Assembly: GCF_030684315.1 (NCBI RefSeq)
Contig: NC_081397.1
Span: 4,278,001-4,342,000, forward strand
DNA from: Stegostoma tigrinum
Lineage: Eukaryota
Reading direction: 5' to 3'
DNA length: 64,000 bases
Part shown: piece after piece, positions 18,801-46,434 of the stretch
Layout: every line of letters starts with the position of its first letter
How positions within the stretch are numbered: the first letter of the stretch is position 1
Notes under the pieces: generated by a model
Seen by the model: the letters and a program-made list of their open reading frames with translations, nothing else
Databases searched by the model: none
What the model was told of the DNA's origin: nothing
Program-made: the position numbers and the translations under genes

Positions 18801-19599
18801 TGCAGCTCTGTCAGGTTGAGCAAGTGCCCCATTGTCAGCATGTCAATTCTGAGGCAGTGCACAATGCCCTTTAATGTATGGGTCATCATCAATACATAGG
18901 TGTCAGATTCTGCGCTGTTGATACGGACGTAGTTATCAAAATGGAACTGTCAGTTCATGCTGTGTGACAGTGGGAGGGTTATTACCAAGCTGATCCTGTC
19001 AGTTTCTGCTATATGGATATGTGAAGTTAGTAATCAAAATGAACCTGTGAGAATCTGCTTGTGAAAATTGGAGTGTAGTTATCACACTGCACCTCAGAAT
19101 TAAAAAAAAAACGGTTTATTTGAATGCAATTATAAAATTGGACCTGTGAAGTTACACTGTGAAACTGGAGTGTTATTAACAATCTGATCTTCTCTGTTGC
19201 TACGATGTGGATATGCAAGTGTAGTTATCATTCAGGTCCTGGTAGTTTGATATGTGAGCATAGGTATTAATTTGTACATATCAGTTTTCATAATGTGAAT
19301 TTGATAATGTTTTTAGGAAACTGTACATCAATACGTGAGCGTCAATCTGTTTTTGCCTCTTTCTACAGGGTGAATGATCGAGCAGAGGTAGCAACACACG
19401 CTTGTCAGTTTCTATTTGTCAATGTGGCTGAACTTTGGTAGCCAGTAACATTCTCTGAGAGGGTGCAATTTGTTATGTGGTAGCTGCTATTAGAATGATT
19501 TAATGCAGATTAGATTCAGTTCCTGAGTGTATATTTTGGATGAGTGTTCAGTCTCTCCATTTTCAAAGAATGGCGTAAACGTCAACAGGCTATGAATGC

Positions 19600-20745
19600 C
19601 GAAATGTGACGTTATTGACTTGGTCCCCGAGCTGGCTTGTTTTTGTTCACACGTTTTGCCACCATGCTAGGTGACATCATCAGTAGAGCCTCTGATGATG
19701 CAACATTATTCTCCTCTGCTTGGAATTTACACTGTCCAGTGTGTTGTGCTGAGTACTGTTATTTCAGTTTTGATCCGTATGTGTTTATACGTGGGGTCAT
19801 ACATGGGATCCAATTCTGTGTTTTTTTTTTAGATTCCCTACAGCGTGGAAACAGGCCCTTCGGCCCAACAAGTCCACACTGCCCCTTGAAGTATCCCACC
19901 CAGACCCATCTCCCTATAACCTACACATCCCTGAACACTATGGGCAATTTAGCATGACCAATCCACCTAGCCTGCACATTTTTGAATTGTGGAAGGAAAC
20001 CGGAGCACCCGGGGGAAACCCACGCAGACACGGGGACAATGTGCAAACTCCACACAGACATTTACCCAAGGCTGGAATCGAACCCGGGTCCCTGGCACTG
20101 TGAGGCTGCAGTGGAGAACCATCTAGGAACTCCTGTACGTGTTTGTTAGGCTTAGGCTGCTACGGTTTCTTTATCCAACAAAAGCAAAAAGGTGCTGAAC
20201 AAGCTCAGCAGGTCTGGCAGCATCAGTGAAGGGGAAAACAGTTAGCCTTTCAGGTTCAGTGATCTATCCTCGGAACAAGTTACTGCTAAGCTGCAGACTT
20301 TGTTTTTTGCTCCTGATTTACAGCATCCACAGTTCTTTGGTTTTATTTGGTTACTTTGTCCCATTTCAACTGATGACCTTCGTTGTCTGAATCTATCACA
20401 TATTCAGACAATAAAGGCCATCAGGTTAATATGGAGACAAAGTAACCATGGTTGCCCAAGCCAAACACAGGCACACACAGGAATCCCTAGAGGCATGGTT
20501 TTCCATCCATTCTTCAATCAACAAACACATAGAATCGGACCCCATATATGAAAACTCAGATCAAAACCAGAAATGACACTGCTCACCATAATGGACCATA
20601 CAGTATAAATTCAACTCAAGAGTGGAATAACATTGACTCATTGGAGGCTCCACTGATGTTGCCAATGAGCACAGTGTTTAACTGTATGGAAAAAAAAGCA
20701 AGCCAGCTCAACAAGCAAGTCAACATTGTCCAATACCTGAGCTGC
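19600..20745. mobile_element. Penelope family B fragments in opposite orientations around a SINE and a pLTR fold-back
   Basis: 19600-19820 resembles 46435-46640. 20410-20745 resembles 4690-4930 on +. Confidence 0.55.
19832..20113 (-). mobile_element. tRNA-derived shark-type SINE
   Basis: The reverse strand has a B-box GGTTCGATTCC, a GTGTGGAGTTTGCAC core and a CR1-like tail (GAAGGGCCTGTTTCC). Confidence 0.9.
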
Positions 20746-20948
20746 AGATCTTTGCCAAAAACATTAAATGCTGAAAGTTGTTCAAACTGGGCAGGTGTGC
20801 ATTGTGAATGTTGGAAAAAAAAACAAACTTGTATTTCCTCAGTGATGTTTGAACAAATCTCACTGGAAATTGACCTCAATGTGTGTCTGACTCAATCTGC
20901 TCTGTGACTGTGGAAACAATGTTCTCTGCTCCGACAGCAGGAACATAC

Positions 20949-21030
20949 CTTCTGTTTGTTAGATGCAGCTATTCACACTTGGCTTTGTGCCGAGGGAATA
21001 TTACTCTCTCTTAGTCACTCAAGTATTTGC
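20949..21030 (-). other. Exon-like cassette, copy A (82 nt)
   Basis: Minus strand reads CTTCTGCTTTCCTCCAG|GCAAATAC...ACAGAAG|GTATGT. Paralogous to three other copies. Confidence 0.5.
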
Positions 21031-24000
21031 CTGGAGGAAAGCAGAAGAGCGCCCTCCTGTAAATTAACATCAGCCAAGTTTGATAATATTTCATTGATCA
21101 ATGCAATGTTCAGTTAATAATCATTACAATATTTCATTTCAAGTCAGGAATCTTAACAGAATTGGGTGTTTGATGCCACTGTTGCTCTGAGCTGCTTCTT
21201 TGTCTTGCGATTTTTCTTTTTGTTAATTCCATACCAATTGAGTGAAGTGCAGACACTAAGTGTCTAGATCCACAAATGGGACTACACAATGCAAGTGTGT
21301 CTGTAGATATGAGTTTTTGTTGATCTATTCATGTCTCACACAAGCTGAGCCTTTGTTAAATTACTTATGTATTCACACAGCAGAGACTGGCAGGGACCTA
21401 TGAGATTCTGCCCTGCGTTTATTTGAGAAGTCATCAAACTGTACTTGACTGTGGTTTTCTTTCCCCTTTGTGAATATGAGAATGTCGTTGTCAGTTTTTA
21501 CCTGACTGTGTGTGATGTGGGAATGTTTGTGTCAGTTTCTGCAAGGTGAGTATACATATCCATCTGAGCCAGTCGTTTTCTGCTATCTGAATGTAGGACA
21601 GTAGGCTTCAATCTTTGCTTCTCAGTTTCTGCTATGTCAACATGTGAGCATGGTTTTTCATCTTTACCTGCAAGTTCCGAGCTTTGAACGTGTGGGTACA
21701 ATTGTTAACATAACCCTGAATGTTTCTGCTTGTAAAAATGCAACCATATTCAGCCAATCGTACTTGTCATTTTCAGACATGTGAATATGAAAGTCAGACT
21801 GATAACTACATTGTCAGTTTCTGTTCTGTAATTGAGTGTGCTTTTCAGTGCATACCAACCAACTTCTGTCGTGTGAATATGATTGTCATTAACAATCCGA
21901 ACCTTGTCAGTTTCTCCCCAGTGAATATTCTTGTGTAATTATCAGATTATACCTGTAAGTTTCAGCTGTGAATTATTCACTGTTAATTCATTCGTTATTA
22001 CCTTCTGTCCATCAGTTTCTGGTTTCTAATGTGTGAGTGCACCTAAGGTTTGTATGTGTCAAATATTGCAATGTCAATTTGTGCACACAGTTATCAATCC
22101 GCTCCTGTCAGCATCCTTTGTTAACATCAGGGTGCGGTCATTAATCTACTCTGTCACTTTCAGCTCAATGGATTTGAGAGTGTAGTTACCAATCCATAAC
22201 TGTCAGGTTCCAGTGTGAATGTTAATAGAAGAGGCAATAGTCTGGTAGCATTATTGTTGGACTATTATTCCAGAGAGCCAGATATTATTCTGTGGACCCC
22301 GTTTCAAATCCCATCATGGCAGACAGTGGAATTTTAATTCAGCAATAAACTAAGCAAAAAGTTGACTGACAATTCTCCACGAAAATAAATCTGATCCTCT
22401 AACATCCTTTTGGGAACAAAGTCTACCATCCTTATCTGGTCTGGCCTACATGTAATTCCAGACCCACAGCAGCGTGGTTGGCACTTAACTGCTTTCTGTG
22501 CACAATTAGGGGTAGTCTGTGACACACACATCCCATCAATAAATTAATAAAAAAAATGTTGGAATGTAGTTATCAATCTGTCTCTGCCAGTCACTGTTTT
22601 GTTAATGTGATGAAAGTTATCAACCTGTACCTGTCAATTTCTGTAATGTCCATATATATCAGCAGTTATTAATTTCTACCAATTTTTCTTGGTTTACGAT
22701 GTCACCAGAGAGCTGATCCGTACCTGTTAGTTTCTGCTCAGAGTGTATTTATCAAATTGTTCCTGTCAGTTTCTGCTCTGTCAATCTGAGAGTGCAGTTA
22801 TTAATCTATACCTGTCAGTTTCTGCAAGGTGAATGAGGGGGTTCTGTTATGAACATACACCATCAGATTCTGCTCAGAGAAGTGAGAGCAGTTATCATGC
22901 TGCCACCATCAACTTCGCTCTGTAAATCTGAGTGCAGTTATTCATCTGCACTTGTCAGTTTCACGTTTGTGAATGTGAGTAATGTGTTCTCTCCCCATCT
23001 GTTTCTTTTCCTTGAATATCAGTTTAGTTATCATTCTATCCTTGATAACTAATCATACATTTTCTCAGCTAGGGAGAGCTAGGGAACTTGGGGAAATAAA
23101 TATGGACGTCTTCAAAATAGTCCGCATGACATTAACAGGAGTTGTTAGAGGCAGCAAGAGTAAAAACACAAAGTGGCTAAATCGACAGGACCCAAACAAG
23201 TTTTTGTCGATTTTCAGGATATCAGGATTTTGTGGGAAGCTGTGTTGATAATTTGAACAAATGACATTGTTTTCGTGCTTTCTTGTAATATTTCGAGGGA
23301 AGGATCATCCCATCCCTGTCACATATTGCAATACGAAGTGTGACTATGGTCATCAAATGTGTACACTCAGTTTCTGTTATGTGAATGCGACAGTGCAGTT
23401 ATAAATCTCAGTTTCTGCAGTGATAATGAGAGTGTAATTATCAGTCTGTCAGTTTCTGCTATATCCATATGGGTTTAGTTGTTATCAGTACATGTTAGTT
23501 TCTGTCATATAAATGTGAGAGTGTCACCAGCCTGCCCCTGACAGTTACTGTACTGAAGGTGCGTGACTGTAGTTACCAAGCTGTAGCTCTCCATTACTGC
23601 CATGTGAATGAGGGTAGTTGTGCACCTACACCTTGGCTTTCTAATGATCAATGTGTGAGTGTCGTTGTCATTTATATACCTGTTTGGATTTGCTTGTCAA
23701 TCTGAGTTTAGTTATCGATCTGTACTTGTCAGATTCTGCTGAGAAAGTGTATGATTAGTTATCAAACTGTACCTGTCAGTTTAAACAATGTGAAATCGGG
23801 AGTTTTATTATTAATCTGTTCCTGTCAGTTTTTGCTGTGCGGATATGATAGATGTGTTATCAAAAGTCATCAGTAACTGCCATGTGAACATCTGAGTCTA
23901 TTTACCGGTCAGTCCCTGTCCGTTTCAGCTCTGTATCCGAGTGTGCAATTATTAATCTGCAACTGGTAGTCTCTGCTACATGACTATTTCAGGGCATTTA

Positions 24001-25469
24001 TCAAACTTTCCCTATCAGCCAGTGAGTGTGCTGTGAATGTGCTTCGCAATTTGGACTTGCCAGTTCCAGTGCAGAAATGTAAATAACAATTTCTCCTCGT
24101 CAGTTTCTGCTGTATGTGTTAATGAGTGGAGTTAGAAATCTGTACACATGTTTGTACCACACAAATACAGGTACAGATGTGACTCTTTCTCTGTATGTTT
24201 CTGCTACGTGAATATCTAAGCATGGTTACCAATCGGTACATGCCAGCTGCTGCTTTGTGAATCTGTGAATTTAGTTGTCAGTCTATGCCTGTCAGTTTCT
24301 GCTTTAAGAATGTATGAGTGCAGTTATCAACATGTACCTGTCAGTTATTGCTCCATCTATTTGTTTTGTGCAATGGATTGTGTAGAAGCAAAAGGTTTTG
24401 TAACTCCAACAGTGCAGAGTCTAACTGGGACAAGTTATCAAGGGCTGTTCATCAGGATAACATCAGCTTTTCTGACTGCATAGTAACATAATTCTGTGAG
24501 TAATGCTGTGGAATAGACAGATGTGGAATTCCTTCCTTCGAGTCTAAAGGAAAAGGGCAACGAACAAATCAACTGTATTCAGCTGAATGACCACAATGTT
24601 CCTTCTACAGGGAAGGGTATTGGCTAATTCACTTCATTATTCTCATGAATATTACATAACCCTGCTCTGTGGCGTGACGGTGCACGGCAGCAGCAATACT
24701 CTTATGGTGTGCTGTTGTGGGGATGAAGAAAGCAAAAGGACTTGTATTTTCTGTCTTACAGTGGAGAAGATTTAAACTTATTGAACATGGTCAAACTCTT
24801 TGCCAAAAATAATTGACAATTACAAGATTTAGTTAAGTAGATCATTCTTCATTGCTTTAAATGGTGATTACATCATTAATGTGAAGAAACAGCATTCTTT
24901 TTACGTGCTTTTTTTTGTAATTTCATTGGGAGGGGCAAGTGACACAAAACTGTTTAACCTCGTTGCCAAATTCACTTCCATGCTTCCCCACCGACGCCCC
25001 CAGACCCAAAAAGAAATTTTGCAAGCCAGATGGAAAATACGGTTTCTATTCCTGAAGGTGAACATGTTGAGGATCACGTTGTGTTGAAGTTGGGGTTGGC
25101 AAATCGTATACTGCCATGGCACACTTATTGAAATGGAATGCTGGCTGAATGGGATCAGAATTGTCAGGTGCTTGTTTTTGTCTACGATCAACCTGATGGG
25201 CTGACAGGTCTTTTATTCTGTCCTGTGGACTCCTCCTCTGCTTATATTAAAAAGCCGTAAACATTTTGTATGTATCCACTTGTTACCTGTAGTGTGTATA
25301 GGTATCATTGTTGTTAGTTTTTGTATGTTATGTGTTGATACAAAGAGGATATTTGGGACTCAATCTGAATCAGTCAGCAGCTTTGTGTGTGTCTGCATGT
25401 GCTCAGTCATGATTTGCTACTTGCCAGTAACACTACTTGTCACACGTGGTTGTTGAAACTATGTAACAT

Positions 25470-26455
25470 GATGGCTTTCTATGAGGGGGTAACAAGGTGC
25501 AGAGCTGGATCAACAAAGCAGGTCACGCAGCAGAGGAACAGGAAAGCTGATATTTTGGGACTGTTAGAAACGGGGGAAGAGAAAGAAGAGAGAAGTGAGG
25601 AGATGATGATGAAAGGTGCATAAGGACCAGATAGGTGGAGAGAAGATGGACAGGTCGAGGAGGCAGGGCTAGAGCCAGTAAAGGTAAGTGTAGGGAGGGA
25701 GTTTGGATGTGGGTTGGTCAGTTGAGGGAAGATGGACTGGTCAGGGAGGTAGGGATAATACTAGTAGGCCAGAGGTGCAGGTGTGGGTTGGTCAGTGAAG
25801 TGGGAGGAGCAGATTGGTCAGAGAAAAGATGTACAGGTCAAGGAGGTAGGGACCTGCTGGATGGGTTTGTGGTGGAGTGATTTTGAAGCTCACATTGAGA
25901 ACATTGGGTTGCAGGGCTCTCAAGCGAAATATGAGGTGCTGTTTGTGCAGCCTTCCGGTGCAACACTGTGGTACTAGAAGCAGCGTGGGATGGATATGTT
26001 GTCCAAGGAGTCGAAGGGGGTACTGAAGTGGTTCACAACTGGGAGTTGCAGTCATTTGTCAAGATGCGACCATAGGTGTTCAATAAGCAGACTCCAAGCC
26101 TCCGCTTGGTTTCCCCGATGTTGAGGGGGCCACATCGGGAACAGCAGATACAATGCAACGCATTAGAGGAAATGTAGATGAACATCTGTTTGATGTGGAA
26201 GGTTTTCTTAGGGCTTGGGATGGGGATATTTGGAGAGATGTCGGGGCAGGTGTCACACTTCCTGCTGTTGCAGTGAAAAATGCCAGGGTTGTGGGGCTAG
26301 TGAGAATGTGGAGTGGACGAGGGAGTCAGAGAGAGCAGTACCTCTGGGAGGCAGAGAAGGGTGGGGAGGGAAAAAAGTGTCCTTGGGAGTGGAGTGAGAT
26401 TGAAGGTGGCAGAAGTGGTGGAGGTTCATGCCTTGAATGCGGCTTGATGGAGTGA
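25470..26455 (-). mobile_element. Older Penelope-like element fragment
   Basis: HLIFRLRALQPN motif, degenerate GETKRRL, and a pLTR-like start. Confidence 0.8.
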
Positions 26456-26489
26456 TACTTGATGTTAAGAGGATACTGTCGTTATCTCA

Positions 26490-28430: not shown

Positions 28431-28749
28431 CTCTCTCTATCCAATTTACATTGAGGAAATGTATTTTGCCTCAAACTGGATACAGTTCCAGTTTGAGTAC
28501 TTTCAACAAAGAGTCACCTGTTAACATTTCAAAGATGTGAATGTTGATGGACTATGAATGATGTTGATTGGAACTAGCGGGATGTCAATTGGCAATGGAA
28601 ACATGAAAAAGAGAAACTTGCCTTTTCTCAGTTGGGATTGGGTGGTTTTTCCCTTGGTCAAGTCTCTGGAAATCGAGCTCAATGTAAGTCTGATTCAATC
28701 CGCTCTGACTATGGGAAAGACATTCTCCATTCTGATCACAGGAACGTGC

Positions 28750-28832
28750 CTGCTGTTCGTTGGAAGCAACTGCGCACACTCGGCTTTGTACCGAGGAAAT
28801 ATTGCATCAACTGGTTTCTTCAAGTATTTTGC
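28750..28832 (-). other. Exon-like cassette, copy B (83 nt, GC donor)
   Basis: Minus strand reads TCTTCTGTCTTCCTCCAG|GCAAAATAC...AACAGCAG|GCACGT. Confidence 0.4.
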
Positions 28833-29045
28833 CTGGAGGAAGACAGAAGATATATCTCTCGTCAATCAACATCAGCCAAATTTGACAATATCAAACAGAT
28901 TAACATATTCAGGTACCAGTTATTAGGATGTTTCTTTTCTTGAACTTCACCTCTCAAAGCAGAACTCCAAAAGTTTGTGATTTTAAATAAGCCTGTTGGA
29001 CCACAACATTGTGTCATGTCCCCCTCCCTCCCCCCATCCCCCTCT

Positions 29046-29073
29046 CTGATGAAGGGTCTAGGCCCGAAACGTC
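29046..29073 (+). ncRNA. Minimal hammerhead ribozyme core 1
   Basis: CTGATGA-AGGGTCTAGGCCC-GAAAC-GTC. Stem I is only about 2 bp. Confidence 0.6.
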
Positions 29074-29366
29074 AGCTTTTGTGCTCCTGAGATGCTGCTT
29101 GGCCTGCTGTGTTCATCCAGCCTCACATTTTATTATCTTGGAATCTCCAGCATCTGCAGTTCCCATTATCTCTGATACTATTTTAACCTCACTGCGAAGC
29201 CTCTTCCAGGGATGCCTAACCTGAAGAAGTTACCCTCCTCCCTCCGGACCAACCTCAGGGAATCTCTCTCCCATTGCAACTCTCTTGTATCTTCTTTGCT
29301 CTCCATCTTCGGTCCGCCTCCCCCTCTCTCCCTATTTATTCCAGTTCCCTCCCCCCATCCCCCTCT

Positions 29367-29394
29367 CTGATGAAGGGTCTAGGCCCGAAACGTC
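29367..29394 (+). ncRNA. Minimal hammerhead ribozyme core 2
   Basis: Identical motif 321 bp downstream of core 1. Confidence 0.6.
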
Positions 29395-29687
29395 AGCTTT
29401 TGTGCTCCTGAGATGCTGCTTGGCCTGCTGTGTTCATCCAGCCTCACATTTTATTATCTTGGAATCTCCAGCATCTGCAGTTCCCATTATCTCTGATACT
29501 ATTTTAACCTCACTGCAAAGCCTCTTCCAGGGATGCCTAACCTGAAGAAGTTACCCTCCTCCCTCCGGACCAACCTCAGGGAATCTCTCTCCCATTGCAA
29601 CTCTCTTGTATCTTCTTTGCTCTCCATCTTCGGTCCGCCTCCCCCTCTCTCCCTATTTATTCCAGTTCCCTCCCCCCATCCCCCTCT

Positions 29688-29715
29688 CTGATGAAGGGTC
29701 TAGGCCCGAAACGTC
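29688..29715 (+). ncRNA. Minimal hammerhead ribozyme core 3
   Basis: Identical motif 321 bp downstream of core 2. Confidence 0.6.
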
Positions 29716-30414
29716 AGCTTTTGTGCTCCTGAGATGCTGCTTGGCCTGCTGTGTTCATCCAGCCTCACATTTTATTACATTGTGTCATGAGAGTTGTGTC
29801 TGATCTTTAAGGGCATCAATTTAAACACAAGTCTGAATCAATTCTTACATCAAGCTGCTTCTTGGCTGAGGATTGTGTTTTTAAATATGTAATTCGACAC
29901 TGAGTGAGATTCAGAAACTGAACAATAATTGCACAGCTCCATCTAAGGTGCTACCTGAAGATGCTGCACCGTTGACACAGCTCATGTTACCAGATCCCAA
30001 CACACTGACTGTTGAAGAGAACAACAGCCGCTATTCCAAATATTTTTCCCGAGACGTATGATCTGTTAACTCCAATCTGCGTCCTTTATAGGTCTTCCAC
30101 TGCGCCCTCCACCATCCCCGGCAACTCGCAACTAACAGCGTAAAACAGCAGCCAAACAGTGAATTTGCAGTGTTTACAAGTCTAAAAGCTACAAGACTGA
30201 CCCCCAGCAGCTTCTTGCCGCTGTGTCTCCCTCAGCAGGCCCACACACAGCCCGAGAAAGGCCTCTCTCTCCCCCTGCCCCCAGGCCGCTCTCTCTCCAA
30301 GTTCCGGGACCAGTTCCTGCCCCGCTCGGCCTCTGACCAACAGCCCCGGGTTCTCCCGGAACTGAGCCCGAATCAATGCCGGTCTCGGAGCCCCCCTCTG
30401 TGTCCCAGACTCAC

Positions 30415-30625
30415 ATCTCGATGCGCTGCCGGAAGGAGCCTGCTGCTCCCTCGCTTCCCTGGGCGCTGGTCTCTCCATTGCGGCCTGTTTCAAACAAACC
30501 TCTTCCACTCACTGAGTAAATGCCCCTCAATGGCAGCGCAGGGGGAGAGCATCACGCATGCGCTCCCCTGGTCATCAAAAAGCAACATTGGGGGCACCGG
30601 GCCAGCCTCACGCATGCGCTGTTAA
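30415..30625 (-). promoter_or_regulatory. CpG-rich promoter with two NRF1-like sites and putative first exon (left copy)
   Basis: GCGCATGCGT at 30554-30563 and 30610-30619 (minus). GCCGCAATGG start context (ATG at 30478). Donor GTGAGT at 30414-30409. Confidence 0.6.
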
Positions 30626-31168
30626 CCCCATTTTTTTTAAAAACCGTTTGCAGGCAGCGCGGACCGGACACGGGATCATTGCCTGATCTGAATGTACCAG
30701 TCAGGAGGGAAGCGCGGGGTTTAATACAGCCCAGGCAAACTGATCAACCGACTGGGTAACCGTGGTTAATCAATCTTATCAAACCCGCCGATTTAAACAA
30801 CTTCTGAGCGATTAATTACAGAATCCCATTTTTTTCGGGGCATGTTTAGTTTGTAATGCAATTGCTGCCTGAAATGTATTTCGCAGGCAAAATGAAGCAA
30901 TAACCGTTAAAACATCGCCAGAGATCGTAGCATCAACATTAGATAAAATATCATTCCTGGAAGGGTTATACTGCAATATGCAACATTAGTGTCTGGGCAG
31001 AATTACAAGCCGTGGGAGGAAATAACCAGATGCAGTTCCAGTGACCCTCCCCACATGATACCATCCTCATTTTCAGTCTCCGCTCTCGGAAATGTGATAT
31101 TTGAGTTAATAGAATCAATTCAAGTTTATGCTCTGTCTGCACTCGGAACCGGGACAGGGATAATTTGA

Positions 31169-31337
31169 CTTAGAGACGGAGCTGCAGATGCTGGACAATC
31201 TGACGTAACAAGGTGTAGTGTTGGATGAACAGAGCGAGCCGAGCAGCATCAGAGGAGCAGGAAGAAGGATCTCGGTCCGAAACGTCAGCTTTCCTGCTCG
31301 GCCTGTTATGTCCAGCCAGCTCTCCACCTTGTTATCT
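31169..31337. mobile_element. Fold-back Penelope pLTR insertion with ~14-bp TSD just 3' of H1
   Basis: Inverted pLTR halves, flanked by CAGGGATAATTTGA (31155-31168) and CAGGGATCATTTGA (31338-31351). Confidence 0.75.
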
Positions 31338-31359: not shown

Positions 31360-31401
31360 CAGCTCTTTCCTGGAGAGATGTGGGTGGCTCTGAGAAGAGC
31401 C
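31360..31401 (-). terminator. H1 3' stem-loop and histone downstream element
   Basis: Minus strand reads CCAAA-GGCTCTTCTCAGAGCC-ACCCA (31386-31401), then AAAGAGCTG (31368-31360). Confidence 0.95.
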
Positions 31402-31437
31402 TTTGGGTTCAGGTGGTGACACATTACACCGACTGCT

Positions 31438-32076
31438 TCATTTCTTTGCTGCTTTCTTGGTCACTTTCGCTTTGGCCTTCGTCTTCGTTTTCACCGATTT
31501 TGGGGCCGGTTTTGAGGCCTTGGGGCTCTTGGTCTTTTTCACCTTCTTCACGGGAGTCTTTTTCTGAGGCGCTGCTTTCTTCGCCGCTTTCTTTGGCGTT
31601 GCTGCCTTCTTGCCGGCCGCTTTCTTTCCTGTTGCTTTCTTGGCTGGGGATTTCTTCGCTGCCACCTTCTTGGCCGTTGTTTTCTTCACGGCTGCTTTCT
31701 TGGCGGCTGCTGCGGGTCTCGCCTTCTTTCCCACTTTTGCCTTGACCTGATTCTTTGGGAGTTTGAAGGAGCCGGAGACGCCCTGGCCCTTCACCAGAAC
31801 CAGGGAGCCTTTCGCCAGGCACCTCTTGGTAGCCATCCTGATCTGTGCATTCTGCTTCTCCACATTGACCCCGCTTCTCTGCAACGCCTTCTTTATAGCG
31901 GCCAGAGACGTCCCCTTCCGATCGCTGTTCTCCCCGACAATCTTCACAATCCGCTCGCCCAACCCGGGACCGGCTGTTTTTTGCCTGGGGGCCGCCGCCT
32001 TCTTCTTCTTGGGAGTCTTGGGTTTAGTGCTGGCGGAGGCTGGAGGAGCCGTTTCGGCGGCTGCACTGTCGCTCAT
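31438..32076 (-). CDS. H1: Histone H1, replication-dependent, 212 aa
   Basis: Globular domain (DRKGTSLAAIKKAL...VKGQGVSGSFKL), K/A/P-rich tail with SPAK/TPKK/SPK motifs, intronless, with a 3' stem-loop. Confidence 0.97.
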   Translation of the reverse strand: MSDSAAAETAPPASASTKPKTPKKKKAAAPRQKTAGPGLGERIVKIVGENSDRKGTSLAAIKKALQRSGVNVEKQNAQIRMATKRCLAKGSLVLVKGQGVSGSFKLPKNQVKAKVGKKARPAAAAKKAAVKKTTAKKVAAKKSPAKKATGKKAAGKKAATPKKAAKKAAPQKKTPVKKVKKTKSPKASKPAPKSVKTKTKAKAKVTKKAAKK

Positions 32077-34722: not shown

Positions 34723-34724
34723 AA

Positions 34725-35168
34725 ATTGAGGACACAGTAATGGGAAGGGGAGTTGAACTGGTTCGCGTCTGGGAGGTGCATTTGTTTACTGCGAGCAAAG
34801 ATGTTCCATAAAGCAGTCCCCAAGCCTCCGCTTGGTTTCCCCAATGTACAGAAAGCCACACTGTGTACAGCAGATGCAGTCTCCCACATTGGCGGACATC
34901 CAGGTGAACATCTGCTTGATGTGGAAAGTCATCTTGGGGCCTGGGATGGGGGTGAGGGAGGAGGTGTGGGGGCAAGTGTAGCACTTCCTGCGGTTGCAGG
35001 GCAAAGTGCCGGGTGTGGTGGGATTGGACAAGCGAGTCACGGAGAGAGTGGTCTCTCCAGAAGACAGGCAAGGGTTGGGTGGGAAAAATGTCTTTGGAAG
35101 TGGAGTCGGATTGTAGATGGCAGAAGTGTCAGAGGATGACGCGTTGTATCGGAGGTTGGTGGGGTGGT
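34725..35168 (-). mobile_element. Penelope GIY-YIG segment (continues at 36215)
   Basis: CNRRKCYTCPHT...CGFLYIGETKRRLGDCF. Confidence 0.9.
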
Positions 35169-35169
35169 A

Positions 35170-36213
35170 ATGAACATAGAACAATACAGCGCAGAACAGG
35201 CCCTTCGGCCCTCAATATTGCTCCGACTTGCGAACTAATCTAAACCCCTCCCCCTACACTATCCCATCATTGTTCATATGCTTATCCAAGGACTGTTAAA
35301 TGCCCCTAATGTGGCTGAGTTAACTACATTGGCAGGCATGGTGTTCTATGGCCTTACCACTCTCTGAGTAAAGAGCCTGCCTCTGACATCTGTCTTAAAT
35401 CTATCACTCTTCAATTTGTAGCTATGCCCCCTGTACAAACTGAAGTCATCATCCTCGGAAAAAGACTCTCACTATCTAATCCACTGATCATCTTGTATGT
35501 CTCTATTAAATCACCTCTTAGCCTTCTTCTCTCCAATGAGAACAGACCCAAGTCCCTCAGCCGTTCTTCATAGGGCCTGCGCTCCAGACCAGGCATCATC
35601 CTGGTAAATCTCCTTTTCACCTTTTCCAATGCTTCCACATCCTTCCTGTAATGGGGCGACCAGAACTGCACGCAATATTCCAAATGAGGCCGCACGAGCA
35701 TTTTGTACAATTGCATCATGACATCATGACTCCGGAACTCAATCCCTCTCCCAATAAAACCTATCACACAGTAAGCTTTCTTAACAGCAGTATCAACCTG
35801 GGTGGCAACTTTCATGGATCTGTGTATGTGGACACAAGATCCCTCTGCACATCCACACTACCAAGAATCTTTCCATTGATCCAGTATTCTACATTCCTAT
35901 TATTCCTCCCAAAGTCAATCACCTCACATTTAGCCATATTAAACTCCATTTGCCAACTTTCGGCCCAATTCTGCAGTTTATCCAAGTCTCCCTGCAACCT
36001 GCAACATTCTTCCACACTCTCCACCACTCCACCGACTTCAGAGTCATCTGCAAACTTACTAACCCATCCACCAATGACTGCATCCAAGTCATTAATAAAA
36101 ATGACAAACAGCAGTGGTCCCAAAACAGATCTTTGAGGCACACCACTAATGAGCGGGCTCAAGGCTGAATATTTTCCATCAACCACCATTCGTTGCCTTC
36201 TTACAGAAAGCCA
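35170..36213 (-). mobile_element. CR1 LINE 3' portion inserted in Penelope
   Basis: [22 protein letters not shown]...SKFADD, RPHLEYCVQFWSPH and LFSLERRRLRGDLIE. Confidence 0.95.
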
Positions 36214-36214
36214 G

Positions 36215-36878
36215 AGGACTTTGGGATTCGCTTGGGGCAATTACTGTGAGGGCGTGGTGTGAGGGATGAGGTACAGAAAATGCGGGAGACACGGTCAACA
36301 GTGTTCTCGATCGCTGCGGGGGTGGGGGGGAGGGTGGTGATGTTGCGGCCCTTGAAGAACAACGACATCTGGGATGTGCAGGAGTGGATTGCCTCATCCT
36401 GGGAGCAGATGCGGCAGAGGCAAAGGAATTGGGAATAGGGGATGGAATTTTTGCAGGAAGGTGAGTGGGACGAGGTGTATACCTGGTAGCTGCGGGAGTC
36501 GGTGGGCTTGAAATGGACATCGGTTTATAGGTGGTTGCCTGAGATGGAGTCAGAAAGGTCCAGGAAGGTAAGGGATGTGTTGGAGATGGTCCATGTGAAC
36601 TTGAGGTTGGGCTGGAAGGTGTTGGTGAAATGGATGAACTGTTTGAGCTCGTCTTGGGAGCATGAGGTAGCGCCGATACATTCATCAATGTGACGGTAGA
36701 AGAGGTGGGGTTTGGGGCCAGTGTATGTGCGGAAGAGGGACTGTTCTACATATGCCACAAAGAGGCAGGCATAGCTTGGGCCCATTCCTCAGACGACATG
36801 TCCATCCTGGGCATTTTGCAGTGCCATAATGATGCAACCCGTAGGTTGCATGAACATCAATTCGTATTCTGCTGGAGG
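36215..36878 (-). mobile_element. Penelope RT segment plus short inverted piece (36785-36878)
   Basis: MGPSYACLFVAYVEQ...HIDECIG...PNLKFTW. The + strand piece reads SSDDMSILGILQCHNDATRRL. Confidence 0.9.
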
Positions 36879-36879
36879 T

Positions 36880-37086
36880 AACAGCGCATGCGTGAGGTTG
36901 GCCCTGCCCCCATTGTTGCTTTTTGATGACCAGAGGAGCGCATGCGTGAGGCCCTCTCCCTGCGCTTCCATTGAGGGGCATTCACTTAGTGAGTGGAAGA
37001 GGTTTGTTTGAAACAGACCGCAATGGAGAGACCAGCGCCCAGGGAAGCGAGGGAGCAGCAGGCTCCTTCCGGCAGCGCATCGACAT
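36880..37086 (+). promoter_or_regulatory. CpG-rich promoter with two NRF1-like sites and putative first exon (right copy)
   Basis: GCGCATGCGT at 36884-36893 and 36938-36947. ATG at 37023 (MERPAPREAREQQAPSGSAST). Donor GTGAGT at 37087-37092. Inverted copy of 30415-30625. Confidence 0.6.
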
Positions 37087-37880
37087 GTGAGTCTGGGACA
37101 CAGATTGGGCGCTTCGCGACCGGTATTGATTCGGGCTCAGTTCAGGGAGAACCGGGGGCTGTTGGTAAGAGGCCGAACGGAGCAGGAACTGGTCCCGGAA
37201 CTTGGAGAGAGAGAGCGGCCTGGGGGCGGGGAGAGAGAGGCCTTTCTCGGGCTGTGTGTGGGCCTGCTGAGGGAGACACAGCGGCAAGAAGCTGCTGGGG
37301 GTCAGTCTTGTGGTTTTCAAATTCCCAACCACTGATGGAAATTCCTTGTTTGGCTTCTGTTTCATGCTGTTTGTTGACATTGTGCAGTCAAAGTCGAAAC
37401 ACAGACAAGACTGTGGAAATATAAGAACCCTGTAAAGGACATGGATTAGAGTCAATATATTCTACAGTTAGTGCATTGGGATTTGGTAACATGAACTGCG
37501 CAGACATTGCAGTGGCTCTGGGTATCACCTTATGTGGAGCTGTACAATTATCGTTCCATTTCTAGATTTTACTCAATTGCTATTGAAACAGATATATATT
37601 TTTTTAAAAAATCCTCAGACAAGGCGCAGCTGAAAGCTAAAATGGAATCAGACCTGCATTTGAAATGATGACTTTAAAGAAAAGGCAGATGTCTCATGAC
37701 ACTGTCATCATCTCTCAGGTTCTTTTGAAATGACAGACTTTTGGAGCACTGTTGTTCAGAAGAAGTTAAAGAACAGAAACATCCTAATAATTATAAACTG
37801 AGTATTACAGTAATCTTTTTGACATGGTAAAACTTAATTGATGTTGATTTACAGGAGTAAACTCTGCTGTCTTCCCCCAG

Positions 37881-37962
37881 GAAAACACTTGCAGGAACAA
37901 GACAATGTTATGTGTGCTTGGTACGAAGCCAAGGGTGACCAGCTGCTTTGAACAACCAACAG
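37881..37962 (+). other. Exon-like cassette, copy C (82 nt)
   Basis: CTCTGCTGTCTTCCCCCAG|GAAAACAC...ACCAACAG|GTATGT. Confidence 0.5.
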
Positions 37963-38794
37963 GTATGTTACCATCTCCAAGCAGAGAACACGCTTTCCAC
38001 TGGCACAGAGCAAATTGAGTCAGAGATACATTCAACTCAATTTCTGGTGACATGCATGCAAGCCAACAGTCAAACACAACCAACAAAATAAAAATAGTTT
38101 CCCCCCCCACTCTGTTTTCTCAAAACACCACCCTGTTTCAAAAAAGATCATTTGTAGCCTACTGGCATTTACGGCATTTTTGAAAGGGAACAGACTGAAT
38201 TTTCATCTGAAACAGACACAAAAGAACGGCAGTAAATCTACATTTAGTACGCATGTTTTCAAATTTACTGTCAAGGTGAAGAAATAGTTCATGCTGTTAC
38301 ATAGTTACACCAACCAAACATATAGCAGATAATGAGGACAGATATGGAAGAAAACATTCAAGTTATCATGAGTAACTGAGCAGGACAGCATTCATCTTTG
38401 TCAAATAGATGTCCCAGGCACAGCCAGAACAGTTAATTAATGTGCCTTCCAAATGCACATCCTGTCCCAAAGCCTGACGTAGAATGCCAGCAGAGTGTAC
38501 GCACACACTTTCTGGCACACACGCACTCCACGGAGTTGTAAATATATCCACTATTTCCATCACAAATGTCACACCATCTAACAGCCATGAAGATCATGTA
38601 TATTGCAAACCTCACAGTGTAACAATGAAGATGATTTCCACTCACGGATTTCAGGTCAGAGAGCTAGCCTTTCATGATAAGCAACAAATAGAAAAGAATG
38701 TGAGCTAAATACTTCAATCCTCGTGTGGACATGCACTCCCATGTTCATAATGTGAATATCATTCATTCACAGTATTTGGGAAAAAAAGGACAAA

Positions 38795-39592
38795 TTTTGT
38801 GGCGTTCAGTTCAGGCAAATGCGAGGTGATGCACTTTGAAAGATCCACTTCAAGAGCGAACTATGTGGTAAATGGAAAAGCCCTGGCAAAAATTGATGCT
38901 CAGAGAGATCTGGGTGTTCAGGTCCATTGTACCCTGAAGGTGGCAACGCAGGTCGATAGAGTGGTCAAGAAGACATACTGCATTCTTTCCTTCATCAGAT
39001 GGGTCATTTAGTGCAAGAGTTGGCAGGTCATGTTACAGTTGTATAGGGCTTTGGTTTGAACACATTTGGAATATTGTTTTCGGTTCAGGTCACCACATTA
39101 CCAAAAGGATGTTGATGCTTTGGAGAAGGTGCAGAGGAGGTTCACCAGGATGTTGCCTGGTATGGAGGGTGCTAGCTATGAAGAGAGTTTGAGTTGATTA
39201 GGATTATTTACATTGGAAAGATGGAGGTTGAGGGGGGACTTGATTGAGGCCTACACAGTCATGAGATGAATTGACGGGGTGGATACCAAGAAGCTTTTTC
39301 CAAGAGTGTGGAACTCTATGACTACGTGTCATGATTTCAAGGTGAGGGGCAAAAGTTTAAGGATGATATGCATGGAAAATTCTTTACACAGAAGGCTTTG
39401 GGTGCCTGGAATGCGTTGCCAGCGGAGGTGGTAGAGGCGTGCATTATAGTGTCCCTTAGTATGTATGTAGACAGATAGGTGACTGGACAGGGAGCAGAGG
39501 GATACAGATCCTTGGAAAATAGGTGACAGGTTTAGATAGGGGATATGGATCAGCACAGGCTTGGAGGGCCAAAGAGCCTGTTCCTCTGCTGA
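38795..39592 (+). mobile_element. CR1 LINE 3' fragment
   Basis: KCEVMHF and QRDLGVQVH, with a tail GGGCCAAAGAGCCTGTTCCT. Confidence 0.9.
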
Positions 39593-42500
39593 AATTTTTC
39601 TTTTTTGTTCTTTGACACACTGAATTCGTAAGAAGTAGTCCAAGAAATATATCGAACAAGAGATTAACTTCACCTCTCTATGTGTCACCATCTCATCGAC
39701 TGAGAGAGATAATTAAAGTATCATTTTCTTTTGTACAAACTGGAGAAATTGCATATCAGGATAACTTTCAGATTGAAATTGAAATTGATATTGTCATTGC
39801 ATTTGTTTGCATAAAACTACAAACTGAATAGTGAAAACCATCTGATACACTTCTACTGAATATAAACTTTGCTATTAATAGACCAGAAGGAAATCAAGTA
39901 GTGACCTGAAACGATACAGAGAATAACCTACATTCAAGCAGACAACCTAGATTTTTGAATGTACAAGTAAGAATGTCTCATACAGTGAGCTTGCAACAAC
40001 AAATGAACATTAAACTCTCTATGTATCCAGACCAGAGACAGAGCAAGCCGAAATAAAAGACAGAAACCCTACCCTAGAAATTATACAGGGAGAGAATGAT
40101 AAATGCATTCACAAACCAGATAGCGTCAGGCATTGCCTAAAAACTCATCTCTCAGATTTCCAGGACAGGATCTGACGGGGCCAAATGGGTAAAAACACTT
40201 GCACAGCCAGAGAGAAGAAACTGACAGGCACGTATTGCTAACGGCGCACTCATATTCACATATCAGAAAAGGACAGGGACAGAAAGATAATTACACACAC
40301 ATTCAGACTGCAAAAACTGACAGGTACAGGCTGATAAATACATGCACACATGACAGGACAGCAAAAGCATAAGCAGATGTAGATTGATAACTACATTTGC
40401 ATATTCACAGACAAATTTGACAGGGACATATTTGTAACACTTTCACATTCACAAAAGAGGAATTGATGGATATAGATTGATAACTAAACTCACATATTTC
40501 ACAGCAGAAACTGAGAGGGACAGTTTGATGATTACGCTCATATCTTCACATGACAGCTAACAACAAGTACGAGTCGATGATTACCACTCACACACATATA
40601 TTCATAGATATCTGCAGCACAGCAAAGAGTCCTTTCTCTCACTGAATCTACACTGTTTAGAAACAAACAGCCGACAATTCGACATCAATTCAGCCAGGAT
40701 TCAAATTCCATAAATGTGTCATGTTGGCAGAGGAAGTATCATCCTCACGTTTATCAGTTGTCAATTTCTTCACCAAGCATGATCACTTTTTTTTATTCTA
40801 TATTAAGCAAGAGGACTTTATAATCAGAGACCTTTTGTTTTCAAATTAGCTTAAAATTTGTTCAAATAGCTCTGTGTTCCTCTTGACAATCCACCTGAAT
40901 TTTTACATAAAACACAAGAAAGCTTCATGCCATTTTTTTCAAACAAGCAATATCACAATATAACCGTCCTCACTTATATTTTGCAAAGATTGTTCAACAG
41001 TGTTTATTCTTCAGTAAATTCAATTTGACAGTTCCAGTTGTGCCCAGTGAATGACAGAAAACAAAAGGTCAACACCGAGCACGTTAATGTCCGCGCCGTA
41101 AAACGAATTCGAAGTAAGAAAGCTAATTTTCTTTCCTGCACAAGCAACATTGTGGTCAGTCAGCCGCAATGCAGTTGATTTGTTCATTGCACTTCCTCTT
41201 TGGCCATAACATACTAAATTGACATCTTTACTTTAGCAGCATTCCAAGACTGGTGTCATGATGCAATGTTGAATAATATTAATCTCATCCTGAAAATTTC
41301 CTTTGATATCACCACAGCGGTTAGACTCTGCAATGTATCCTTGGCGAAGGTCCATTGCTTGTCTGTCCTCAACTCTGAAGAAAAGCACAGACTCATTTCA
41401 GTTGCAATGCCTTGCATTTTCACTTTGCTTATAAATGCTGGAGGCACAAACAACTGAAGAACATGGGCTGTTTCACATTTGCGAAAGAAGAGATGAACCA
41501 AAAACTCTGTCCTCTGCCATGGTGGTAATTGGCTCTCCACTTTACAAGAAATACTTAATCTGCTCAGTAACGCAATACAGGAAGATAGAAATAGGATCAA
41601 TTGAGTGTATCTGTCTGTCTTGTTTCATAACAGCAGCTGTTGTGCCAATACACAGTAGGTACAGAATAACCTACAAAGTGTGGAGATGCTGCCAGGTTAG
41701 TAGATACCCAGGCAAAAACAAAAGAAAATGCCATTTCTCTTAAATATCACATGGGTGGAAAAGCTCCCGTTTCATTACGCATTAATAGGACAGGGTAAGA
41801 GCGAAGTTCTTCAATCCCAGTATGTGAATACTTTCCTTGAGGATTAAGTATGAGGTATCAGCTTGGCATAAAGTAAATTCGTCATGTTCACGACATCAGA
41901 AAATACTGAATCGATTGCATGATCGATGATGAATTCTACTGAAACAGCTCAAGAAGTAAATTGAAATCCAGATTAAATATGCCTCCAAATATCACACCAT
42001 GTCTTAGATTTGGACACGTAACTCGTGCATCAACTTCCTTTGTTGAAACTGAAGGAAATATATAGTAGGCCAAGTTTAAAATGAAATAAACATTACAATT
42101 TAGTTTGCTTCCAAAGAGGTACAAATTAAAAAGCAGCTCTCATCTCGTGCAGAAGTACTGCAGAAAGATGTTGTTAAATGGACCAAAGAAGAAAGCAAAT
42201 GGGGTCGTGAACAGATACAGATAGCTGGAGTTTATTGGAAATAGATTGAAGAAACGCTGATCTCATGATCTTGTTACAGGAGGAATAAATACACATGCAG
42301 TTTTTGAGTGACTGACCAATCCAGAACAAAACTTACTATCGTAAACCGGACAGTAACCAAACTGTATCTACAGAGTCAGAGACTGACAAAGGTATTAAAA
42401 CAGTTTAATTTACACAATCTGATTATATGGCATTGGGTAAAATCTCATTCATGTTGAGCAGCAGAGATTTGAACAATAGAAGAATGTCAGCAGTTCCTAC

Positions 42501-43609
42501 AAGTAACACGTTCAATGCAACATTACCCACTCGTTACCCATGTGAAATATGATGACAACGCATGAGGAATACATTGACACACAATGCCAGAGACTGAATC
42601 GATTCCATGCTGACTGTCAGCCCGATGCTGATGAAAACCAACAGTAACCACTCTTATAATCTCAGTGGGAGACTGACTATTTCAGAAGAATGCCCATACT
42701 CTCTTTATGATTAATGTATTATAAATTAGTGTTATAATGATATAATAGTTTATAATACACCTCATAAAGGGAATCAAATCATACATGCAGAGCTAGAAAC
42801 ACAAGCAGACGTTTGGAAGAGGACAGTGTCACTTAGCCCAATACCCATCTTTAATTCAGATTGGCACCTCATTAGAAATCTCCCTCTCATACAACAAACA
42901 GATGCTGAAAGGAAAGGAATGAAATTTATACCTCTGGTCAGCATGGACTGTTGGACCAAAGGTCTGTTTCCCAGATGTACTTTGACAATATTGCTGCACT
43001 CTCATATTCACAAAGCAGAAACCGATCAGAAGAAACTCACAGTACCACTCCCAAGCCGCATGTGGCATAACAAGGCATTTATATTCACAGAGTAGAATCT
43101 GATAGGGGGAAATAACAATTTTATTTCCATATTCAAATGACAGAAACTGATTGGAAAATGTTTACAACTGCACTTCAACATTCACACTGCAGGTAATGAC
43201 AGGGACAGATTGATGACAATGTCCGTATATGCACATGGCCAAGAATGTTAGGTAAAAATAGATAACTGTATTCTCATATTCATGGAGAGGAAAGCATGAC
43301 AAATTCATAACTACATTTATATATTCACATCACAAAAACTGATAGTTGCAGATGAATAACTACATTCTCAGGTTCCCAGAGCAGACGTGGACAGATACAG
43401 ATGGAAATTTGCACTCAAATATTCACGGTGCATGTTCACACGTCATTATCAACAGATTAATTACAAAACTCACATCTGTACAACAGAAATAGACACTGAT
43501 TGCTGTGTGAAGGTGCAATTGTATTTTTCAATCAGTCCCTGTCAGTTTTCACAATGTGGATGTGTTATTTCAGTTATCAATCAATACCTGTCAGTGAATG
43601 CCACGTTAA

Positions 43610-44780
43610 TGTGTGAGGATAGTGTAATGCACGTTAACTACATGGATTTTAGTAAGACATTTGATAAAGTACCATGCAGCAGATGAATCAGAAATGGAAA
43701 GGCTTTTGGGATACACAGCAATGTGCTAAATTGGAAGCAAAGTTTGCTTAGAACAGGAATCAAATGGTCAATGGCTGCCCTTGTAAACCGAAAGCTGTTT
43801 CAAGTGGTGTTTCTCATAGCTCAGTGTTGGGACTTCTGCTGTTTGTTTTATATGATAACAACTTGGACTTGAACATGGGGATACAATTGGGAAATTTTCA
43901 GCCAGCACAAAAATTTAACAGTGTACTGGTAGTGCAGGGGATAACTGTCAGCTCAAAAATGATACTGAAGTTTTGGTGGAAGGGGCAGATGAGTGGCATA
44001 TGGAGTTCAACTCTGATAAATGTGAGGTAATGCATTTCAGGAGGTGCAAGGACACAAAATAGGAATACATGAGGTGGTGTGGAAATTGTACGTAAAGTGA
44101 GTGGTTTTGGTGTGCAAGTGTAATGGAGTATGAAAATAGCAGTATAGGTGGATAAGATTGTGAAACTAGGTATATAGAATGCTGTCCTTTTTTGGCAGAG
44201 GTATACAACACAAAAGTCGGGCTATAATGATGAAAGTATTTAAGACACTGGTGAGGCTGAAATTGATGTATTGTGCGGCGCGATGGTCACCACATTACAG
44301 GAAAACGTTATTGCTCTGGGTATATTGCAGAGAAGATTTACTGGAATGTTGCCAGGGCTGGAGAGTTATAGCTATGAGGAGTGATTGTCGAGGTTGGAGC
44401 TGTATTATTTTGAACTCTGAAAGCTGGGAGTGAGGCAATTGGGATGGGCAGAGATAGAGTCGACAGGGGGAATCTGTTTCCCTTGGCATAGAGTTTAAAA
44501 ACCATTGGGTGTAGATTAAGTGAAGTGGCAGGACAATGAGAGATGATGGGAGGAAAACCATTTTTATGAGAGGGTGCTTATCTCAAATACGCTGCCTGAG
44601 TTGCTGATAGCAGAGATTCTCAACTCTTGGAAGAACACACCTGGACCTCCACATTAAGTCTGCAAGCTGCACGGCTATGGGATGTTTGCAACAAGATCGG
44701 ATTTTATGATGGCCATTTTGGGGTGTTTGGGTCAGCATGGATATAATGAGCCAAATGGCCACCTTCTGTGCTGTATAATT
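43610..44780 (+). mobile_element. Old CR1 LINE fragment
   Basis: YMDFSKTFDKVP, SGVSHSSVLGLLLFVLY and WSPHYRK. Confidence 0.85.
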
Positions 44781-45213
44781 TAAATTGGTCAATAGTTCCT
44801 GATCATTCTGTCCCTGTCAGCCTCTGCTGTGTAATACATGAATAATTACCAAAGACCTAGAGGGACACATTGATAACTACACTCACACGTTCACCAAGTA
44901 GCAACTGACATGAATAGATCAATAACTAAACTCGCATCCACTGACAAGCTTCCACTGGGTGGTTCCAGTCATGGAGCTGTACAGGTATCGTTTACTTTCA
45001 GGAGCTCATTCAAATGGTGTTGAAATTTTTAGAAATGATCAGACGTGGAGCAGCTCAGGGCAAGATTGGATCAAGACCCATAGTTATGTTAGAATTCCTA
45101 GTAATATTAATATATCCAAATGATTATTAACTAAATGTTGTGTTGATCAGTTAAACATTGTCAAACTCAATTGATGTTGCTTTACACGAACTATCTCTTC
45201 TGTCTTCCCACAG

Positions 45214-45296
45214 AAAAAAACACTTGAATGACCAAGACAAAGTAAGATTTCTTCAGTGCAGAGGAAGTGTGACCAGATCCTTCTGATAAACAGCAG
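45214..45296 (+). other. Exon-like cassette, copy D (83 nt)
   Basis: TCTCTTCTGTCTTCCCACAG|AAAAAAACAC...AACAGCAG|GTATGT. Confidence 0.5.
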
Positions 45297-46434
45297 GTAT
45301 GTTCCCACTGTCAGAGCAGAGAACATCCTTTCCGCAGTCACAGAGCAGATTGAGTCGGACACACAGTGAGCTTAATTTCCAACAGATATGTACAAATTTT
45401 TCCAACAGGAGAACAAGGTTGGAGAAATTAAACTTTATTTTTCTTATCTCTCCATTCCACATACACAGTTCCAACAAACTTCAGCATTCATTTCCCATTG
45501 ACTTTTACACCATTTTTGAAAATGGATAGACTGAAATTATACACTCAGTATCTGAATGAAATCTACGTAAACTTACTCTACTAGCAATTATCACATAATG
45601 AATCACACCTCCACTAAGAATATTACTGGCTGCTGACAATTAAGCCACTTTTACAAGTAGAAAATGACCAGTATGGATTGATGCCTAACCTCACTCATTT
45701 GTATTGCAAATGCATACAAAAGAAAAAGGATGACGAGACTCACATATTGACATTGCAGAAACCGACAGCTAAAGATTAATAAAGATATTCACACATTCAC
45801 ATCATAGAAACTGGGATACACAGGTTAGTAAACAACACTCACATTCACATAGCAAACTGACAGCAACTGAACGATAACTACTTTCACATATCCACACAGC
45901 AGAAACTGGCAGCTACATATTGATGACAACTCCCAATTTCACAGACCATAAAGTGACAGGTACAGTTTTATAACTGCATACCCACAGATTTAAAAAATAC
46001 CGACGGGTACAGTTTGATAACTATACTCAAATATTCACAAAGTAGATTCCCACAGGTACATGTTGATAACTTTACTTGCAAATTATGAGGGACTGATAGG
46101 TACAGGTTGCTGTACATGCATATATCCATACAGAAGAAATTGATAGGAACTGATTGACGATCACTTTAGAGATAGCAAGAGCTGCAGATTCTGGAGTCAG
46201 CCTTCCCAGTTTCACAAAGCATTAGCTGACAGGTACAGTTTGGTAACTACTCTCATATTCACAGAGTAGAAGCTGACAGGCCGTTATTGATAACTGCACT
46301 CACATGGTCACCAAGCAGAAACTCAGAGATTGATAACAGTGACATTCAAATTGCAGAAACTGGCGGCTACACAATGATAACTGCTGTCACACTTGCATTG
46401 CATGAACCGTTGGGGTCAGATTAATAACTATGCT

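Follow-up and report, generated by a model that had tools for sequence, protein, structure and literature searches.

Inverted arms around a spacer, with conversion from arm to arm, are known from sex-chromosome palindromes and from inverted histone duplications such as chicken H2A/H4 and mammalian HIST2. Among divergently arranged paralogues, the primate genes SIGLEC11 and SIGLEC16 stand head-to-head about 9 kb apart and their upstream region and first exons are 97-99% identical (PMC5701461). Here we describe a mirrored pair in the zebra shark Stegostoma tigrinum, within a stretch of 64,000 nucleotides (assembly GCF_030684315.1, contig NC_081397.1, positions 4,278,001 to 4,342,000 of the forward strand; hereafter the window, numbered from its first letter). 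Two inverted arms flank a histone H1 gene, and each arm looks like a spliced gene read outward, with a CpG-island promoter and first exon followed by two copies of an older exon cassette. The innermost parts of the arms, termed here the inner modules, are much more alike than the arm bodies, and gene conversion appears to be the cause. All coordinates are collected in Table 1.

The inverted duplication is real. An earlier note on this DNA had listed six reverse-complement matches with a common axis, and a self-comparison of the window (117 minus-strand high-scoring segment pairs) recovered all six in reverse-complement orientation and mirrored order. A seventh anchor, absent from that list, emerged from a sensitive run with the minisatellite masked. 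Even the three weakest anchors scored 126, 74 and 154 in mirror orientation, compared with best scores of 28-31 in the same orientation and shuffle maxima of 37-44 (40 shuffles each). In addition, a degenerate 49-bp minisatellite changes strand between the arms, since the outward strand carries 49 of the 51 units found to the left of 33 kb and 66 of the 69 found to its right. Alignable unique sequence makes up only about 2.5 kb of the 11.7-kb left arm. The outer arms are strongly diverged, as the note had stated, with bodies 64-71% identical (60-80% by block) and separate insertions in each arm, and near-identity does not extend along the full arm length. Other parts of the earlier description need correction. 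The arms are not equal at about 10 kb, as the right minisatellite reaches about 51.6 kb (with one unit at 54.6 kb) and the left ends at 18.9 kb; nor does the evidence support a self-contained palindrome. A related H1-plus-exon cassette is annotated in the zebra shark, so that the two promoter modules may be no closer to each other than to further copies, the condition that the note had named as refuting it. The 6.25-kb spacer, said to hold only H1 and transposable elements, also contains the H1 promoter and about 530 bp of unpaired CpG-rich DNA. A mirror partner for the latter was sought within the spacer and not found (best score 27, shuffle mean 27.8).

The inner modules had been described as nearly identical over about 440 bp. 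They are strongly similar, at 95% rather than near 100%; the differences amount to 21 substitutions in 430 columns and several small indels, which rule out assembly collapse as the source of the likeness. Identity drops at position 30190 from about 95% to 68%, a step reached by none of 500 permutations (33/435 to 112/356 differences in the initial alignment, the module count becoming 21/430 after indels were re-placed), and divergence is 0.05 in the module as against 0.37-0.46 in the arm bodies. At its other end, the 5' outer edge of the right module coincides with a junction to a retroelement fragment. Both copies carry two GCGCATGCG motifs, which we take to be NRF1-like, and an exon-1 donor GTGAGT ranking in the top 1.5% and 0.7%. 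Within the module the substitutions are unevenly spread: there are 10 in 144 columns of promoter, one in 64 of the exon with the ATG, 10 in 94 of proximal intron and none in 128 of distal intron (longest-run P=0.011). The earlier note had attributed the similarity of the promoter ends to selection or to conversion between arms. The module does appear homogenised, and conversion fits; selection alone does not. Patchy gene conversion is the better candidate cause, because selection on promoter motifs would yield the opposite pattern of divergence. No third copy of the module was found within the window.

CpG sites follow the same division, with 20 of 25 kept and none decayed in the module, whereas three arm-body blocks keep none of 26 and show 18 decayed. 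Repeat pairs resemble the arm-body blocks in failing to retain their CpG sites. This retention fits an unmethylated, probably active promoter; recent conversion would preserve CpG sites too. Next to the module, the left inner arm (28650-30189) keeps 18 CpG sites and the right (37313-38062) keeps 6, a surplus that perhaps stems from the adjoining H1 CpG island.

Two of the listed matches, 20860/45040 and 28665/37730, proved to be four copies of one cassette, two per arm, and the window holds no fifth copy. A tree of 574 gap-free columns grouped the first cassettes of the two arms (L1, R1) and the second cassettes (L2, R2) with 100% bootstrap support and informative sites of 40:18:7, which places the internal cassette duplication first and the inversion of the whole unit later. 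Read outward, every cassette offers a polypyrimidine-AG acceptor, then an exon of 82-83 nt, then a donor. All four acceptors rank within the top 0.35% of 8768 AG sites and three of the four donors within the top 0.27% of 7348 GT sites. When neutral decay of an initially strong site was simulated 40000 times, four acceptors stayed strong in 0.6% of runs and three donors in 0.02%, the latter figure being flattered by a threshold equal to the root score. The inward strand shows no conserved acceptor-donor pair, and inward-facing genes were rejected for this reason. The proposal of two outward-facing paralogous units is thus supported by splice signals on the outward strand, one acceptor of which is used by an independent RefSeq model. 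In the otherwise decayed arm bodies, selection appears to be visible at the splice sites only.

This model, zebra-shark P0001, joins H1 residues 1-194 (donor 31495^GT) to AG^28832, matching the L1 acceptor in both its predicted position and its strand, and so replaces the C-terminal 18 residues of H1 with 45 residues from the left-arm exon (28832-28698). The frame of this tail is open to a stop both in P0001 and in the window, where the L1 donor is GC. A transcript of this type, known from annotation, would explain the odd RefSeq H1 model, with read-through from H1 splicing into the left gene. Between P0001, which belongs to a cluster of 8 members, and the window, 6 of 194 residues in the H1 part and 2 of the 45 derived from the exon are different. 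These differences exceed those expected of an allele, which suggests a second H1-plus-left-arm cassette about 2-3% diverged; P0001 could be a divergent haplotype of this locus. A search with its tail matched only P0001 itself (the single candidate at lengths 131-419). We found no evidence that links the mirrored pair functionally to H1.

The arms probably represent a spliced long non-coding gene, a working reading that leaves room for a coding exon outside the window. The cassette exons show stops and no shared reading frame, and exon 1 joined to the next exon meets a stop after 29 codons on the left and 21 on the right. The exon-1 read-through open reading frame (ORF; 37023-37421) had no homologue among 37 candidates (lengths 73-233 only) and no match among 1.84 billion representatives, and its Atlas feature matches reached only 0.76 and 0.75, below lead level. 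Among the 231 of 409 stop-to-stop ORFs of at least 60 aa searched against Pfam (129 of the 184 overlapping 17.5-48 kb), only histone families, RVT_1 and three matches below the cut-off were obtained. Protein-coding arms were therefore rejected as far as the window extends, on shifting frames and the lack of a Pfam family or homologue. With regard to structured RNA, the histone stem-loop alone passed in an Rfam search of 18000-47500 to E=2, two other matches lying far below cut-off, and no tRNA was found. Folding windows of 90 nt fell below z = -2.5 in 6 of 22 region-strand scans, none position-matched between the arms. A cassette hairpin pairs in 58 of 60 cells, with scores reached by 33/500 and 139/500 shuffles (four sequences, of which two differ in their single folds).

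Several observations weigh against our interpretation. The L1 donor is GC, the splice matrices are approximations, and the sites were chosen after they had been seen. The AG and GT dinucleotides alone persisted as observed in 7.4% of 40000 neutral runs. Strong acceptor-donor pairs are not in excess over the whole window (9 observed, 10.7 expected), the cassette exons being three of the nine, and conservation along the cassette shows no clustering (P 0.39-0.59). P0001 relies on a weak donor within H1 (top 14.5%), and as other models in the same set are H1-H3 fusions, this one may be a prediction artefact. Finally, the case for conversion comes from one genome and two copies of the module, and the further cassette suggested by P0001 means that the template may be a third copy rather than the opposite arm.

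This last point leads to an alternative that we consider somewhat unlikely, in which both arms belong to a multi-copy gene family in the histone cluster, the module was homogenised across the family, and the inversion is incidental to conversion. The roughly 2-3% divergence suggested by P0001 (6/194 and 2/45 residues) is in line with this, as are several close zebra-shark H1 paralogues on one 15.6-Mb contig. On the other hand, the window has no third module, the P0001 tail matched nothing else (1/1 candidate), and P0001 displays H1 and the exon only, not the promoter between them, and could be a haplotype. Alternatively, the two units might be the 5' non-coding exons of genes that encode proteins, their coding exons having been lost or being located beyond the window. 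Short exons behind a first exon in a CpG island are a frequent layout of 5' untranslated regions, which the arms match, and zinc-finger genes, candidates for such coding parts, are common near shark histone clusters; moreover, the exon-1 ATG and first 21 codons carry a single substitution in 64 nt. We regard this as unlikely, since six-frame translation of the whole window gave no C2H2 linker and a single stop-broken C2H2-like pattern, Pfam matches above cut-off were confined to histones and RVT_1 (231/409 ORFs), no candidate coding exon was seen in 18.9 kb to the left or 27 kb to the right, and the exon-1 frame has no homologue.

It is also conceivable that the arms are not transcribed at all and represent a decayed macro-repeat or a composite mobile element, with splice-like sites that are inherited chance matches. 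They consist mostly of minisatellite and retroelement DNA, have no family match and show unclustered conservation. Nevertheless, this is very unlikely in view of a CpG island intact in both copies and strong acceptors kept in four of four, one of them used by the annotation pipeline. Purifying selection on the promoter and exon 1, aided by slow mutation of CpG sites in an island free of methylation, could in principle dispense with conversion altogether and would account for the retention of both motifs and the exon and for the absence of CpG decay. Such protection concerns just 25 sites, the edge is abrupt with divergence of 0.05 against 0.37-0.46, and the motif-bearing promoter (10/144) is more diverged than the deep intron (0/128), all of which makes selection without conversion highly improbable.

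We therefore favour, at a probability of a little under 60%, the explanation that combines cassette duplication, inversion, decay of the gene bodies and repeated promoter conversion between two outward-facing non-coding genes. What was probably a spliced, non-coding Pol II gene in a histone-cluster region first duplicated an internal exon cassette and was then copied whole as a head-to-head inversion, an order shown by the tree; the inversion probably predates the split between zebra shark and whale shark. Both bodies have since decayed and gained separate insertions. The 430 bp that span the promoter, exon 1 and the adjoining part of the intron, presumably a CpG island kept free of methylation, would have been overwritten again and again by non-allelic gene conversion, the tracts differing in age. 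The nearest and most likely template is the opposite arm at a distance of 6 kb, and pairing could proceed by intrachromatid fold-back across the spacer. In this way the two genes would probably retain a single promoter design and fire together outward. H1 would be a histone-cluster neighbour lying in the spacer, no working part of this arrangement, and its read-through may splice into the left gene.

Approximate ages may be set on the divergence of zebra shark and whale shark, for which PMC13100897 gives dS of 0.061-0.111 across about 50 Myr. On this clock the arm duplication would date to about 170-380 Myr from divergence of 0.37-0.46, the promoter and proximal intron tract to about 33-60 Myr, and the distal intron tract to less than 11-19 Myr; these ages are rough and lean upward, as non-coding DNA may evolve faster than dS. 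A bolder extension, which we consider quite unlikely, is that the shark histone locus has held a functional family of spliced non-coding genes for at least 170 Myr, that selection maintains the 430-bp conversion island for co-regulation of copies otherwise diverged by 30%, and that the left gene lends its exon to H1 read-through, giving an isoform with a new 45-residue tail that escapes stem-loop control.

Table 1. Positions of the features discussed, numbered within the window.
Feature	Position	Strand	Identity	Remarks
Left inner module	30191-30624	-		CpG-island promoter, predicted first exon and first 220 nt of intron 1; apparently homogenised; two GCGCATGCG motifs; ATG 30478; donor GT 30414
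Right inner module	36879-37311	+	95%	Mirror copy; motifs 36884, 36938; ATG 37023; donor GT 37087
Left distal intron-1 tract	30191-30320	-		0 substitutions in 128 columns against right copy; stops at identity step 30190
Left intron-1 continuation	29790-30190	-	68% to 37312-37696	Distal part is the upstream piece of cassette 1
Right intron-1 continuation	37312-37696	+
Left cassette 1 (exon and flanks)	28501-29005	-		Partner ~37705-38244
Left cassette 2	20767-21329	-		Partner 44913-45488
Predicted cassette exon L1	28750-28832	-		83 nt; donor GC; the strong acceptor is the one that RefSeq model P0001 employs
Predicted cassette exon R1	37881-37962	+		82 nt; AG...GTATGT
Predicted cassette exon L2	20949-21030	-		82 nt; AG...GTATGT
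Predicted cassette exon R2	45214-45296	+		83 nt; AG...GTATGT
Mirror anchor	19426-19608 / 45475-45646		71%	Tail of left cassette 2 (-), split off by inserted element ~19615-20725
Mirror anchor	20848-21335 / 44907-45396		71%
Mirror anchor C	24409-24671 (-) / 41073-41336		64%
Mirror anchor F	25055-25177 (-) / 40661-40789		65-68%	Seventh anchor
Mirror anchor	28669-28995 / 37716-38044		71%
Mirror anchor	29782-30630 / 36873-37702		79%	Spans the last two matches of the earlier note
Left-arm 49-bp minisatellite tracts	18901-24385	-		Degenerate
Right-arm 49-bp minisatellite tracts	40137-51640	+		Degenerate, interrupted by retroelements
Young retroelement-end insertion	29020-29777			Left arm only; 2.3 tandem copies of 321 bp at 99%; 12-bp target-site duplication
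Unpaired CpG-rich DNA upstream of left promoter	30628-31160			Observed/expected 0.86
Intact histone H1 gene	31438-32076	-		212 aa, replication-dependent type; stem-loop 31361-31406; strand as left unit
Retroelement pieces, right half of spacer	34736-36877			RVT_1 at 35815-36240

The H1 of the spacer is an intronless linker-histone ORF (Pfam Linker_histone, E=1e-15) followed by an Rfam Histone3 stem-loop (31361-31406), immediately 3' of which a short repeat fragment (31170-31337) is inserted with an imperfect duplication on its flanks. Among the best 120 of 323 matches, its closest relatives are zebra-shark H1 proteins, and a tree of the first 160 residues, built with 16 chosen proteins, places it inside a group of six paralogues from the zebra shark (94% support); several close paralogues share one contig of 15.6 Mb. 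The earlier note had called this H1 solitary, which holds within the spacer alone: the region at 55.1-62.5 kb carries H2B, H2A, H3, an H4 with a frameshift and the 3' fragment of another H1. With the core histones (H2B, H2A, H3 and H4 at 55.1-60.9 kb) 23-29 kb away, the gene belongs to a histone-cluster region and is no orphon H1.

The H4 gene (60527-60901, minus strand) has a frameshift near its end that removes the normal stop, and is either a pseudogene or an assembly error; it carries three substitutions relative to the canonical sequence. The H1 3' fragment (62326-62478, minus strand) is about 150 bp long, has a damaged stem-loop and is 85% identical to the spacer H1, the homology extending about 70 bp into the 3' flank. 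Thus the core group's own H1 is truncated, and the intact H1 is located in the mirror spacer. Upstream of H2A, two pairs of direct repeats (57252-57328 / 57827-57902 and 56619-56725 / 57360-57465) look like duplicated histone-promoter fragments without a gene. Three further zebra-shark models, P0007, P0008 and P0022, are H1-H3 fusions and probably prediction artefacts; the fusions imply that H1 usually lies upstream of H3 on the same strand.

Other repeats were noted in and around the left arm. An inverted repeat of 68% identity (19615-19828 / 20520-20723) brackets two short repeats inside left cassette 2, and part of this element matches another at 46437-46749. A second old inverted repeat (6794-7318 / 7590-8120; 73% over 540 bp, 270-bp spacer) is possibly a decayed DNA transposon. 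A different minisatellite of 16/33 bp occupies tracts at 13970-16530 and 17200-18800 in opposite orientation and stops where the 49-bp minisatellite of the left arm starts. The tail of left cassette 1 contains a perfect 11-bp inverted repeat (28470-28497; window z=-4.7) that the other three copies do not have. We take some of the repeats to be CR1, Penelope-like and HE1 SINE elements; the sole confirmed match is RVT_1.

Among titles and the beginnings of abstracts, with subscription papers mostly outside the search, we found no account of the locus or of comparable genes within the histone clusters of sharks, also when inverted pairs in general were sought. The word "histone" does not occur in the main text of the zebra-shark (PMC10620051) and whale-shark (PMC13100897) genome papers. 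The mechanism of gene conversion is known, and the gene pair is apparently undescribed. The locus would offer a clear example from nature in which homogenisation persists over a very short promoter tract although the remainder of the duplicate has long since diverged by at least 30%, the youngest tract being intronic. With the slow clocks of sharks and several assemblies for carpet sharks, the length, direction and age of such tracts can be measured. In addition, the pair flags an unannotated type of spliced gene in shark histone clusters.

Our analyses relate the pair to several known systems. The host genes of snoRNAs and miRNAs, such as the SNHG genes and C19MC, have CpG-island promoters, short non-coding exons and a repeated cassette. 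The shark units share this promoter, exon and cassette layout; the difference is that neither an Rfam small RNA nor a convincing conserved hairpin was found in their cassette introns. In sex-chromosome palindromes and inverted histone duplications the arms are near-identical or the histone genes themselves are duplicated, whereas in the shark the likeness is confined to 430 bp and something other than a histone gene has been duplicated. Replication-dependent histone genes of mammals can yield spliced, polyadenylated transcripts (PMC5100578), and the H1 of P0001 is similar in that a histone gene with a stem-loop splices into a downstream exon. As far as the accessible part of that report goes, the splice donors of the human genes follow the stop codon, and H1C in human is polyadenylated without being spliced, whereas P0001 uses a weak donor inside the coding sequence and would have its C-terminal tail swapped. 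With SIGLEC11 and SIGLEC16 the differences are that the primate genes are protein-coding, with a tract of about 2 kb and a remainder still 88-93% identical (PMC5701461), while the shark units are apparently non-coding, with a tract of 430 bp, a remainder of 64-71%, a histone gene between them and conversion deduced from one genome. Nevertheless, in both systems divergent paralogous units lie a few kb apart (6.25 kb here, as attested by seven anchors, a mirrored minisatellite and outward splice signals), and the 5' tract is far more alike than the rest, here with a sharp edge (0/500 permutations) and with neutral intron included (0/128). The SIGLEC pair likewise has lower identity further along and no motif at the edge of its tract, a further likeness to the pair in the zebra shark.

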